Shown here piece after piece: positions 34,858 to 42,269 of a stretch of 51,516 bases of DNA. How positions within the stretch are numbered: the first letter of the stretch is position 1; each line of letters starts with the position of its first letter. The notes beneath the pieces were generated by a model. The model saw only the letters and a program-made list of their open reading frames with translations, was not told the origin of the DNA and ran no database searches. The position numbers were made by a program, and so were the translations under genes. Source of the DNA: an uncultured Candidatus Saccharibacteria bacterium (GTDB lineage Bacteria; Patescibacteriota; Minisyncoccia; UBA6257; JAKLIH01); the NCBI GenBank assembly GCA_964475745.1, contig CAYYXO010000001.1:1-51516 (forward strand), in the 5' to 3' direction.

Positions 34858-35622
34858 TTAGTTTTGTTTCATTTCATTTACTTTTTCAACGAAAGTATTA
34901 AAATCAATGGCACCAACCATTTGATCCTTTCCTTCTATAAATAAAGTAACTGGATAGCCATTTATAAAAGTAGCTGGCACCCCTAATCTATCAAAAGAAT
35001 CTAAATAATAATTAGCTCTCATTATAATTAACTCTCTATATTTTTGACTTTCTAAACATTCTGAAAAATGCTTTTGAGAAAGACCTATTTTTTCTGCTAC
35101 TTTATTAATGTTTTCTTTTGAAAAAGCTTGCTCCAATGGCATGTCTAGTTCTGCCAAATTAAACATTTTTTCATGCATTTGCCAAAACATGTTTTGTTCA
35201 TTAGCACAATATGATGCTTCTGCTGCAATTAAAGTTGGCGAATTAGATCCTAAAGCCAAAAAATCATATTGTAACCATACATCGCTTAGATTGGCTTGCT
35301 GTAAAAAAGGACTAATGGTTTCTCTGTAAAATTTATTTGATCAAGGACAAGCATAGTCAGACAAAACTGTAATGTAATTGCCTGAAGCTTTATTACCTTT
35401 TCCCTGCAATTGAATGTGTGTAAAAAAATTATCATCTAAAAAGTTTTGCTTTAAAGACTTTTCTTCTATCTTGTCCGCCCTCCCTTTTTCTTGACTTTTG
35501 TTAAATACAAACCTTTCTCCTTCTGGCAATAAACTGTTGTAAGCCGCAAAGAAAATAATCAATATCAAGGCCAAAACAACTACGACCAAAGACATAAGAT
35601 TTTTATACATTTTGTCAAACAT
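34858..35622 (-). CDS. Membrane-anchored DsbA-family thioredoxin-fold protein with a CP[W]S active-site motif (254 aa)
   Basis: Fragments 34858-35259 and 35341-35622 are joined through TGAs. N-terminal TM, ..LSDYACP[W]SNKFY.., AAEASYCANEQNMFWQMHEKMF typical of the Thioredoxin_4/DsbA family. Confidence 0.8.
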
Positions 35623-35751: not shown

Positions 35752-35780
35752 TTGACAAATCATATCTAGTATGATATAAT
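35752..35780 (+). promoter_or_regulatory. Perfect consensus sigma70 promoter driving the candidate ncRNA
   Basis: TTGACA (35752-35757), 17-nt spacer, TATAAT (35775-35780). No protein-coding ORF lies downstream on this strand. Confidence 0.65.
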
Positions 35781-35786
35781 AAATAA

Positions 35787-35980
35787 TCGTAATGAGTTAA
35801 TAGCTCATTTTTTGATTAAAGCTTATTGATCTGTAGATGCAAGGGCGATTTATTGCTTTTGGCCCTCAGAACTTTAATCAGATGGGTAATTTGGTTCCGA
35901 CTGGATTATACCTCTATGAAGTTCTTAATCTCTGCTACTTGCAGAGGATGATGTCTACAGATTAATGGGCTTTATTTTTT
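35787..35980 (+). ncRNA. Candidate structured small RNA (~190 nt), class unknown; rod-like fold with central bubble resembles 6S RNA
   Basis: 21-bp closing helix 35818-35838 / 35953-35973 with four G-U pairs, so it is valid only as plus-strand RNA. Inner helices: 35868-35876/35917-35925 (9 bp), 35842-35846/35862-35866, and hairpin 35930-35946. Ends in a U-run 35974-35980, followed by a second terminator. Confidence 0.6.
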
Positions 35981-35992
35981 TGCTTACTATAC

Positions 35993-36027
35993 CCCCGTCT
36001 ATGCTAACAATAGACGGGGTGTTTTTT
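35993..36027 (+). terminator. Intrinsic terminator (plus-strand orientation) downstream of the candidate ncRNA
   Basis: Stem ccccgtcta / tagacgggg with loop tgctaacaa, then tgtttttt. The minus-strand version lacks a U-tail. Confidence 0.75.
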
Positions 36028-39010
36028 ATATTACTCTTTTTATTTCTTCTATCGTGGTAACACCTTCTATCACTTTTAGAACACCATCTTGTGTCAAGCT
36101 TAAGCTTCTTTCTAATAGCTCTTTCTTAAAAACATTAGCATCTGCTTGAGAAGCAATTAACTCTTCTATTTCTGTATCGCTATATAAAATTTCGAACAAA
36201 CCAACTTGCCCTTCAAAACCAGTGAACTTACATTTATCGCAGCCTTTTTTATCATACATTTTTCATTCTTTGCTCAACCTAAATTCATATAATTTATTCA
36301 TTTCTTTAGAAATGCCCTTGATAGTTTCTTTTATAAAAGACTCTTCTTCTGGTTTTAACTCTTTTTTCTCTTTGCAATAAGGGCACAACTTTCTTACTAG
36401 TCTTTGAGCTACTGCCCCACTAAAACTTGCTGATAAATCTTGACCTGCTATATTAAAGTTTTTTAGCCTAGAGATAACTGTTGATGTATCAATGGTATGA
36501 ATTGTAGACAAAATTAGATGCCCTGTTAAAGAAGCTTGGACTGCTGTTTTAGCTGTTTCTTCGTCTCTAATCTCTCCAACTAAAATAATGTTTGGATTTT
36601 GTCTTAAAAAACTTTTGAGTGCTGCTGAAAAAGTATAGCCTTTTGATTCATTCACTTGAGTTTGCGTTATACCTTTAATTTGATATTCAATGGGATCTTC
36701 GACTGTCATAATTTTTACATTTGGATTGTTCAATGTTGTAAGCATTGCATACATTGTTGTTGTTTTTCCAGAGCTAGTAGGTCCACAGGCTAGTATAATA
36801 CCATTTGGCTTTCTCATCATCTTTTTAACACTTGGCATCATTTCCGGATAAATACCCAGGTCTGTTAATTCTAATTGCGTAATATTGGCGCTCAAAAATC
36901 TCATAACTAAAGATTCTCCAAAACCACTTGGTATAATAGAAACTCTAATGTCCTGATCTTGCTCTGGCCTTTCAATCTTAAACCTTCCTTCATTTACAAC
37001 TCCTTTTTCTTTATAGTCAACCCCTATGAGTTGTTTAGTATATTGAATTATGCCCATATAACTAGCCATATCAAGTTGAATTTTTTCTTGCAAAACACCG
37101 TCAATCCTATAGCGAACTTTAGCTATATTTTCTTCTGGCTCAACATGTATGTCAGATGCTTTATAAATTAATCCTAAAATACATAACATTTCAAAAGCAT
37201 CTTCTGCTTTGTGTTCATTAATAATTTTTTCTATTTTTTTCAAATTATTAATTGATCCAAAAACATTGTCATATTCATCTTTAGTCACTTTAATGCCTCT
37301 TAATAAAGACTGGCTTAATAGTTTATCAAACATTAAGTTTATATAGTCAATGTCTCCCGAAACTCTAACTAGCTCTTCCATTGAAGTTTCGCCTTTTATT
37401 ACTTTGCTTAGGCCATCGTGGAACAACGGCGTCATGCCCATTTGAATAGCCCTCTCTCTTATCTCAGAAATACTTGCCCTTGCTTTGATCATTTCATTAA
37501 TATCATCATTAACAAACAACAATTCAAAAATACCTACTTGGCCTTTATAGCCAAGGTTATTACATTTGGCGCACCCTTTTGGTCTATATAATTTTTTTAT
37601 TTCTCTTGGTGCTACAATATTACTTTTAGGAGATAAAACTGACAAAGCGTTTTTTATTTCCTTTTCTGTTTCTTCTGGAACGCTATACTCTTCTTTGCAA
37701 TAAGGGCACAACTTTCTTACTAGTCTTTGGGCAATGATAATTTTTAAACTCGAAGCCATTATATCATTTTCAATATCAAATTCCATCAATCTAGCTATTG
37801 CTCCAGCTGCTTCATTTGTATGTAGAGTTGAAAAAACTAAATGCCCTGTTAAAGAAGCCTGTATGGCTATATTGGCTGTTTCTTTATCTCTTATTTCCCC
37901 AACCATAATTACATCAGGGTCTTGTCTTAAAATAGATTTTAAACCACTTGAAAAACCATATCCTTGCTTGTCATTAACTTGAGTTTGATTTACTCCTTTT
38001 AGCTGATATTCGATCGGATCTTCAATGGTAATGGCATTTACTCCTGGCTTAGCTTTTTCTTTTAATAAAGAATATAGCGTAGTAGTTTTTCCGGATCCAG
38101 TAGGTCCTGTCACCAAAACCATACCATTTGGGCTAGTTATTAAACCTTTAACCAGCTTAACTTCATCTTCGTCAAACCCCAGATCTTCTAAAGACAGCGT
38201 CATAGCTGACTGACTTAAAATTCTCATCACCAATATTTCTCCGTGCTGACTTGGAATGGCAGAGGTTCTTGCTTGGTACTCTTCGCCTTGATCAATTATT
38301 TTAAAACGACCATCTTGGGGAGAATTTTGTATATTTAGTTTTAACCTTGCCAACAATTTTATTCTATCACGCAATTGAAAATACATTTTTTTAGGAATGC
38401 TCGTTATTTCATCCAAAACTCCATCTATTCTAAATTTAATAGCCGCATCTTCATCTCTTGGGCTTATATGAATATCTGATGCTCCAGACAAAACAGCTGC
38501 TTTAAAAATTAAACCATTATACAGAGATACATTATTTTGATCAATAGGCACCAGAGTTTCTTTTAAATCTCTAAAATCAACTTTAGGAGTATTAGATAAT
38601 ATCAAAGTGTCTGTTATTATTTCCCTTGGTTTTGACACCAAGCTATATCTTTGAAAAGCATACTCTAAGCTTACTTTTGAACATAAGAACAATTTTATAA
38701 TATATCCTTTTTCTTTTAGCTCTTGTATTACTTTTTTTGCTCCTTCATTTTCATCATCAACCAAAGCAACTGCCACCTCCTTGGCTTTCATTTGGAAAGC
38801 AATTATATTGTTTTCTTTTGCTATTTTTTCTTCAATCAAAGCTATGGCAAAAACTTCAATATTTACCTTTCTTAAGTCAATGTAAAACATTCCTTTTTTA
38901 TAGGCTAGATTTTCAACACTTCTTTCTCTTCCATCATCGTATATTTGACCTAACTGACCATCAAGCTGCTCTTTTCTTTGTTGATTTTTTAAAATATCAT
39001 CTATATCCAT
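36026..39010 (-). CDS. Tandem double PilB/GspE-family secretion ATPase (994 aa): T2SSE_N domain plus two complete ATPase modules
   Basis: The 915-aa ORF 36263-39010 already spans both modules without any stop. It joins 36026-36259 through one TGA. Module 1: GPTGSGKTT, ITIEDPIEY, DPDVIMVGEIRD, GHLVFSTLHTN, CPYC..CAKC. Module 2: GPTSSGKTT, MTVEDPIEY, NPNIILVGEIRD, GHLILSTIHT, CPYC..CDKC. Confidence 0.9.
36369..36406. repeat. 38-nt segment identical to 37692-37729 (encodes QRLVRKLCPYCKE of ATPase module 2)
   Basis: Direct comparison: tctttgcaataagggcacaactttcttactagtctttg occurs in both modules. Confidence 0.9.
37692..37729. repeat. 38-nt segment identical to 36369-36406 (encodes QRLVRKLCPYCKE of ATPase module 1)
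   Basis: Same 38-mer as at 36369-36406. A further shared stretch, atgccctgttaaagaagc, occurs near 36521 and 37840. Confidence 0.9.
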
Positions 39011-42050: not shown

Positions 42051-42269
42051 TTACTTTAGCTTTCTTTATCAAAATTAATTAGCATTTTGGCAAAGAAAGC
42101 CAGAGCACCAAGAGTAATTAATTTTAAAATAAGTGGTTGCTCGCACTATTAGCCCACGGACTAATAAAATATAGAGCTTCCTTTAAAAATAAATTAGTAA
42201 ATTCTCTTTAATGCCCTAGCAAGATAATTGTAGCATATTTTCAAATTTATTCAAACAAACATACTTTTC

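Follow-up and report, generated by a model that had tools for sequence, protein, structure and literature searches.

A single-copy structured RNA family of the class Paceibacteria with a predicted four-way junction, coexisting with a separate 6S-type RNA

Several described RNAs resemble the one reported here in some of their features. 6S RNA (SsrS; RF00013) is likewise a stand-alone, single-copy and strongly promoted RNA of ~170 nt, whose structure is kept more than its sequence; a long closing helix joins its 5' and 3' ends, and a second long hairpin lies opposite. However, 6S RNA contains a large open bubble, whereas the RNA described here has a four-way junction with two junction hairpins fixed by covariation. 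The E. coli 6S fold also has a hairpin on the 3' side of the bubble, and some bacteria contain two 6S RNAs, such as 6S-1 and 6S-2 of B. subtilis. Ms1 RNA of mycobacteria is abundant and 6S-sized, does not belong to 6S, binds the core of RNA polymerase and occurs in bacteria without 6S. It is comparable to our RNA as a 6S-sized structured RNA outside the 6S family, and shows that polymerase-binding RNAs can adopt other folds. The two differ in that a 6S-type RNA coexists with the RNA described here, and no sequence or model match between them was obtained.

Further similarities are seen with the Y RNAs (YrlA/Yrn1), the partners of Ro (Rsr), which share an end-to-end long helix, a conserved inner segment, and hairpins in a central multiloop; the inner helix segment of Y RNA is recognised by protein. 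Our RNA differs from them by the lack of a match to the Rfam Y models and of a tRNA-like T-loop, instead of which it carries a 4-nt UNCG-type loop. The SRP RNAs (4.5S RNA or Bacillus-type scRNA), which are housekeeping RNAs, are close to it in size and likewise possess a long terminal helix. Finally, the raiA motif, OLE, and ROOL/GOLLD RNAs are orphan conserved bacterial non-coding RNAs, the functions of which are obscure or have recently begun to emerge. Like the family described here, they are lineage-wide, stand-alone, structured, and found by comparative genomics, but they differ from it in fold, size, and phylum, and their Rfam models did not match.

The locus lies in a window of 51,516 nt, the whole stretch of DNA analysed here (contig CAYYXO010000001.1, assembly GCA_964475745.1). 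A preliminary description had proposed that positions 35752-36027 encode a strand-specific structured RNA of no catalogued class with a strong promoter of its own, and the evidence from promoter, covariation, and Rfam agrees on this. As judged from the sequence, an independent gene for a ~170-190-nt non-coding RNA is located here, with its core at 35813-35978 and a consensus promoter of its own. The sigma-70-type promoter (35752-35780, + strand) consists of a -35 element TTGACA (35752-35757), a 17-nt spacer, and a -10 element TATAAT (35775-35780) extended by TG (35773-35774); it reaches 12/12 in a promoter scan and is among the strongest in the genome. Transcription would start near 35787. The preliminary statement that the region has no coding potential stands, as ORFs of 41-42 amino acids are kept in the closest relatives only. 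No conserved small ORF was found among the homologues, since reading frames, starts, and lengths vary beyond these closest relatives.

The RNA core covers 35813-35978 on the + strand. In its predicted fold, helix P1 closes a cloverleaf-like four-way junction from which the three hairpins P2, P3, and P4 emerge. The + strand folds with -90.7 kcal/mol (z = -9.4; equalled by 0/200 shuffles), compared to -67.9 kcal/mol for the - strand of the same stretch. An uninterrupted closing helix of 21 bp had been proposed for 35818-35838 with 35953-35973; it was confirmed by base-by-base reading and lengthens to 23 bp (35817-35839 with 35952-35974, + strand). Its four G-U pairs (35823/35968, 35824/35967, 35828/35963, and 35838/35953) are also present and would turn into C-A mismatches if the opposite strand were transcribed. 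Over the RNA family, P1 varies in length from 22 to 30 bp, and its inner 9 bp are conserved in sequence (CUGURGGY on the 5' strand, UGCCYRCAG on the 3' strand). Among 50 sequences, 96.8% of the cells of its 22 model pairs are paired, and changes on both sides are seen at 20/22 pairs. In the outer part of P1 the pairs are A-U, A coming from the 5' strand and U from the 3' strand, and a U-run follows.

Within the closing helix, the three hairpins differ considerably in their conservation. P2 (35842-35866, + strand) is a variable hairpin with weak pairing that some lineages can do without: its 5 pairs show 83.6% paired cells in the 50 sequences, with both-side changes at all 5, and it is missing in homologues L061, L067, L068, and L118. 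In the P2-less lineages an additional hairpin is found on the 3' side, and the 5' strand passes directly from P1 to P3. P3 (35868-35925, + strand) is a long hairpin, consisting of an outer stem (35868-35876 with 35917-35925), which is the inner 9-bp helix of the preliminary description, an internal loop, and an inner stem (35884-35895 with 35900-35912) that begins with an invariant GG/CC step (35884-35885 with 35911-35912). In the 50 sequences, 90-93% of its cells are paired. Its upper part contains two near-invariant tandem wobbles (U35892-G35903, kept in 41/50 sequences, and G35893-U35902, kept in 49/50), an invariant pair G35894-C35901 (50/50), and a conserved terminal loop UCCG of the UNCG type (35896-35899); one pair position of P3 switches between G-U and A-C. 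P3 is followed by the conserved linker J3/4 (UAAU, 35926-35929, + strand), which is always 4 nt long, the hairpin P4 (35930-35946, + strand) of 6 bp with a 5-nt loop, 92.5% paired cells, and both-side changes at 6/6 pairs (50 sequences), and the linker J4/1 (35947-35951, + strand), which has 5 nt here and about 5 nt in nearly all of the 50 sequences. The rod with a central bubble proposed initially was therefore not borne out, the structure being a four-way junction with short fixed linkers on the 3' side. The proposed GCAAG/CUUGC pairing (35839-35843 with 35940-35944) does exist in the sequence studied, but is not conserved. It was dropped because the relatives lack it and because it competes with the covariation-supported P4 (35930-35935 with 35941-35946).

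Outside of the junction, a small leader hairpin is predicted at 35791-35809 (+ strand), which in two alignments appears only in this locus and in genome G001; it is regarded as a genus-specific element outside the conserved family core. Read on the other strand, this hairpin precedes a U-rich stretch, and it might help to end read-through transcripts from pilB. Downstream of P1, both the U-run read from the sequence (35975-35985, + strand) and a second intrinsic terminator (35993-36027, + strand; 10-bp stem with 6 G-C pairs extending to 36019, then a T-run) are present as initially noted. U-rich tails follow P1 in most homologues, and P1 with its U-run is likely to constitute a first terminator. 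The predicted 3' end of the RNA is thus given by the closing helix and U-run, with the second terminator as a back-up at this locus. The latter adjoins the stop codon of the opposite-strand pilB gene (36026-36028), and equivalent hairpins are present in relatives of the same taxonomic family.

A comparison with relatives shows that the helices are indeed conserved and covarying. BLAST searches yielded homologues with 89% identity in the same genus and about 83% in the sister genus, while the matches in other families cover the 3' half; a TTGACA...TATAAT promoter lies upstream of every one of them. The RNAalifold consensus of a 14-sequence alignment consists of the closing helix and three hairpins, with both-side changes at 35/53 pairs. 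In a class-wide set of 50 sequences, the alignment of which was fitted to the model and is therefore biased in its favour, 93.5% of the pair cells contain standard pairs and 44/53 pairs show changes on both sides; 0/500 shuffles were as good, and slid controls gave 39-53%. A 31-sequence alignment was also analysed for covariation, and a MAFFT alignment yields the same structure as those fitted to the model. The top pairs in an unsupervised mutual-information ranking are almost all model pairs, and the scan revealed no convincing pseudoknot or tertiary pairs. A covariance model of the family (R1), which was used for the genome searches, scores 167 bits on the sense strand versus about 40 bits on the antisense strand. 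Promoters of the type TTGACA-N16-18-TATAAT, with at most two mismatches and within 110 nt upstream of the RNA, are present in 48/50 homologous loci and perfect in 19.

R1 detects a single locus per genome in 103/151 genomes of the order and in 69/151 genomes of the class. When 151 genomes sampled from the phylum were searched, the matches were confined to members of the same class, and none was found in the other classes. With the filters turned off, three R1-negative genomes yield weaker matches at the same syntenic locus, suggesting that the family is probably near universal in the class Paceibacteria. Matches to a sequence pattern fall in Patescibacteria/Paceibacterota, such as Yanofskybacteria and Nealsonbacteria, and 34 of 80 pattern matches from metagenomes are true members of the family. 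The data describe an uncatalogued RNA family which, as recognised by this model, has a single copy per genome and extends across the class Paceibacteria.

The initial assignment to an unknown class agrees with the Rfam scan. Rfam 15 contains no family matching the window, the locus (E <= 10), or 20 diverse homologues. The preliminary description had found no sign of tmRNA, RNase P RNA, or SRP RNA, and these can indeed be excluded, as the first two were located elsewhere in the genome and the RNA lacks an SRP domain-IV-like hairpin. The slot of tmRNA is filled at C8:21544-21898, that of RNase P RNA at C9:17103-17538, and that of 5S rRNA at C2:37318-37423. The RNase P RNA is itself divergent, reaching 75 bits with RF00010, which is below the curated cut-off of 100. 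The RNA fits no known housekeeping RNA class and the family is new. A search of the literature on 6S, SRP, structured, or noncoding RNA of CPR bacteria and Parcubacteria yielded no paper describing this RNA. Its class-limited distribution, the fixed junction geometry, the exclusion of SRP, Y, and 5S RNA, and the presence of a separate, coexisting 6S-type RNA are reported here as new.

The gene neighbourhood is largely constant. The RNA gene is positioned tail-to-tail with pilB: throughout the class, the pilB stop codon mostly lies -17 to +80 nt from where the model ends. In four taxonomic families tested by Pfam, the divergent gene upstream of the RNA is ruvB; in the family of the genome studied here, a gene for a DsbA-like protein takes the place of ruvB. 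The pilB and ruvB genes are co-directional, and the RNA gene is usually located on the opposite strand in the spacer between them. In a few genomes (e.g. at loci L051, L045, and L015) the neighbours are different or co-directional with the RNA. A separate terminator is present between pilB and the RNA in the taxonomic family of our genome. The pilB gene of the window (36026-39010, - strand) is a tandem PilB/GspE gene of 994 codons, read through one TGA, which encodes two complete PilB/GspE ATPase units (Pfam T2SSE twice).

This TGA (36263-36265, - strand) has a counterpart in the DsbA-like gene (35341-35343, - strand), and TGA behaves as a sense codon in the whole genome. When the stop codons seemingly ending long ORFs are compared, the median length of open frame is 57.5 codons beyond TGA versus 7 beyond TAA. 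In addition to tRNA-Trp(CCA), the genome encodes a normal-shaped tRNA with the anticodon UCA (C8:2069-2143), the sequence of which we take to resemble tRNA-Trp. The in-frame TGA in the CP*S motif of the DsbA-like gene is kept across the taxonomic family, while W or F is found in the homologous loci outside of it. Taken together, the open frames, the tRNA, and the CP*S codon make it seem likely that one family of Paceibacteria reads UGA as Trp, as in code 4. According to a 2026 review (PMC13293708), only Gracilibacteria/JAEDAM01 recode UGA within this phylum, reading the codon as Gly. As another peculiarity of the genome, a non-coding region outside the window (C4:18400-18900) exhibits a very strong fold of -93 kcal/mol per 180 nt and is composed of repeated palindromes, e.g. 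GTGACACGCGCGTGTCAC and GACACGCATTATTTTGCGACA.

Regarding its function, we give about an even chance to the reading that the product of this independent gene of a conserved, uncatalogued family is a stable, abundant, and trans-acting RNA serving as a protein-binding platform. It would offer a specific binding platform to a protein partner, and the putative recognition surfaces lie in P1 (its inner 9 bp) and in P3 (its GG/CC base and the invariant G-U/G-C step below the UNCG loop). A platform for a protein is suggested by the observation that the sequence-conserved parts are helical surfaces, although such conservation in helices could also reflect RNA-RNA or ligand contacts. Action in trans, rather than on the neighbouring genes only, is suggested by the equal conservation of the RNA where the neighbours differ, as with the DsbA-like gene or at L051 and L045, where the genes on either side are co-directional. 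P1, with its A-rich 5' flank and U-rich 3' flank, probably doubles as the RNA's own intrinsic terminator, as indicated by its outer A-U pairs and the U-run behind them, and where the RNA adjoins pilB it would probably act as a two-way terminator as well. A further proposed structure, a release hairpin formed by J3/4 (UUAAUC) and the 3' strand of P1, was discarded, as J3/4 does not follow the changes in P1, e.g. where one family has a P1 of the GAAAGG type.

The near-constant seat tail-to-tail with pilB fits a local role as cis-antisense RNA or insulator as well, and this is the main rival of a trans-acting platform, although we consider it unlikely. The RNA would then act as a cis-antisense RNA and two-way terminator or insulator between the co-directional pilB and ruvB genes (here the DsbA-like gene), stopping read-through, pairing with the read-through transcript, and marking it for RNase III. 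Such a role would agree with the convergent orientation towards pilB and a 3' end at -17 to +80 nt from its stop codon in most loci, with the divergent ruvB upstream in four taxonomic families, with a strong promoter pointing head-on at pilB, and with the outer A-U pairs of P1, which create a hairpin plus U-run on both strands. However, antisense pairing alone requires neither a conserved intramolecular fold nor strand-specific G-U pairs or loop and helix bases that are invariant throughout the class. Moreover, the RNA family is equally conserved beside co-directional or different neighbours (L051, L045, and L015), and in our genome and its taxonomic family a separate terminator hairpin already stands between pilB and the RNA.

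It is quite improbable that the RNA senses a ligand or acts as a catalyst, either as a trans-acting orphan aptamer similar to a riboswitch or as a ribozyme, with the conserved junction as binding or active site. Such a site would suit a four-way junction whose linkers are short, constant in length, and conserved in their bases (UAAU; GA...), and the pair alternating between G-U and A-C suggests that a wobble geometry is being kept. Yet the mutual-information scan gave no pseudoknot or tertiary covariation, the conserved bases are mostly found in regular helices rather than in the junction, and no riboswitch or ribozyme family of Rfam matched. The single-copy, housekeeping-like distribution and the lack of a consistent same-strand gene downstream argue against this function as well.

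The resemblance to 6S RNA suggested in the preliminary description is not supported in view of the junction fold, the missing Rfam 6S match, and a separate 6S-type RNA in the window. According to this proposal, the RNA would be of the 6S type, either the cell's 6S RNA or a second paralogue, and would bind sigma-70 RNA polymerase by mimicry of an open promoter, in which the region of P2 and P4 would correspond to the bubble and P1 and P3 to the duplexes on either side. The size of about 166 nt, the two long helical arms, and the strong housekeeping-type promoter are as expected for such an RNA. In the RNA studied here, the 5' side from P1 to P3 measures 28 nt with a weak P2 of 4-5 bp, and a hairpin lies on the 3' side; in addition, bacteria with two 6S RNAs are known. 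Conversely, RF00013 matched neither the locus nor the genome at E <= 10, while control genomes do match, and it recognised none of 20 diverse homologues at E <= 0.1. The family does not display the open bubble of 6S, with J3/4 fixed at 4 nt and J4/1 at about 5 nt, and both P2 and P4 are supported by covariation. Homologues L061, L068, and L118 have about 0 unpaired nt on the 5' side between P1 and P3, leaving them without the unpaired 5' strand of a bubble.

A further argument comes from a second RNA. RF00013 finds 6S RNA above its curated cut-off in two genomes of the same class (52.1 bits in G164 and 51.3 bits in G451), with weaker matches in their relatives, and G164 also carries the RNA family described here, 80 kb from its 6S RNA. 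A lineage model (R2), built from eight 6S sequences of the G164/G451 group, has one match in our genome, which scores 44.1 bits (E 6.5e-9) and occupies 42093-42225 of the window (- strand), and it was only through this model that the 6S-type RNA of the genome was revealed. This RNA of ~133 nt lies 6 kb from the four-way-junction RNA, upstream of an mnmA-like gene, with a TG-extended promoter-like site at 42254-42227; in its predicted fold, a large bubble rich in A and U separates the closing stem from a terminal hairpin, which is the classic 6S layout. R2 recognises a single locus in 21/40 genomes of the order, which is never the R1 locus, and many genomes of the order contain both RNAs. The R2 family shows 91.8% paired cells and both-side changes at 44/50 pairs. 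No match of R2 was obtained on 35813-35978. The family of the RNA at 42093-42225 is very probably 6S, an identity that is transitive, as Rfam sees the copies of the order weakly (one match of 25.7 bits, with 42093-42225 itself undetected). Scans for promoters and for the folding energy of gaps yielded mRNA leaders, tRNAs, and a repeat region as other 6S-like candidates in the genome, and no 6S; a motif search for ndk found none. With a separate 6S-type RNA tied to genuine Rfam 6S, both RNAs present in G164, a lineage 6S model missing the locus, a junction fold, and members lacking an unpaired 5' strand, little room is left for regarding the RNA at 35813-35978 as 6S, and we rate this as somewhat more doubtful still than an aptamer or ribozyme.

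Two further proposals retain hardly any probability. The RNA could be a very divergent SRP RNA (4.5S or scRNA type), Y RNA, or other standard housekeeping RNA missed by Rfam. SRP RNA was considered since RF00169 remained unmatched: no Bacteria_small_SRP match was found in the genome or in 41 genomes of the order, so that this slot looked empty, and neither RF00169 nor RF01854 matched the RNA, which lacks domain IV motifs and a hairpin resembling this domain. It was dropped once Ffh and FtsY proved absent, as searches of the genome for PF02978, PF00448, and, in all frames, the DTAGR motif gave nothing, and neither protein was found in 41 genomes of the order or 81 of the phylum. The whole SRP pathway thus appears to be absent, with no Ffh, FtsY, or SRP RNA in the genome or in the 41 order and 81 phylum genomes sampled. 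Such an absence in CPR bacteria is already known, the two SRP subunits being missing in many of them (PMC8080830). An assignment as Y RNA is opposed by the lack of a Ro/TROVE protein in the genome. The locus is just as improbable as a MITE-like inverted-repeat DNA element or chance hairpin rather than an RNA gene. The long inverted repeat of 21-23 bp around about 112 bp speaks for this reading, but the locus is single-copy in each genome and fixed in its syntenic position, and it shows compensatory changes in all five helices, strand-specific G-U pairs, and a conserved promoter. An origin from a mobile element or phage was likewise rejected, as the pattern search gave 0 matches in viral contigs and the RNA is single-copy in the genome.

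CPR/Patescibacteria account for much of bacterial diversity, and their genomes of 0.5-1 Mb have very little dispensable content. An RNA that is present in a single copy in such a small genome, shows compensatory changes throughout the class, and is preceded by a strong promoter is likely to matter to the cell. The separate miniature 6S-type RNA removes 6S as the default explanation and provides two defined RNAs to be compared for polymerase binding. More tentatively, and with distinctly less confidence than we place in the protein-binding platform itself, the RNA may be the core of a new ribonucleoprotein that is universal in Paceibacteria, with a housekeeping job peculiar to host-dependent bacteria with tiny genomes and no SRP. 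Its constant location next to genes of the pilus motor (pilB) and of recombination (ruvB) might hint at a part in DNA uptake, in the biology of pili, or in some other process of the cell surface. If this were true, the RNA would represent a new class of bacterial housekeeping RNA beside 6S RNA, tmRNA, RNase P RNA, and SRP RNA. Once found, its partner could reveal a new RNA-protein machine in organisms that are experimentally almost unexplored.
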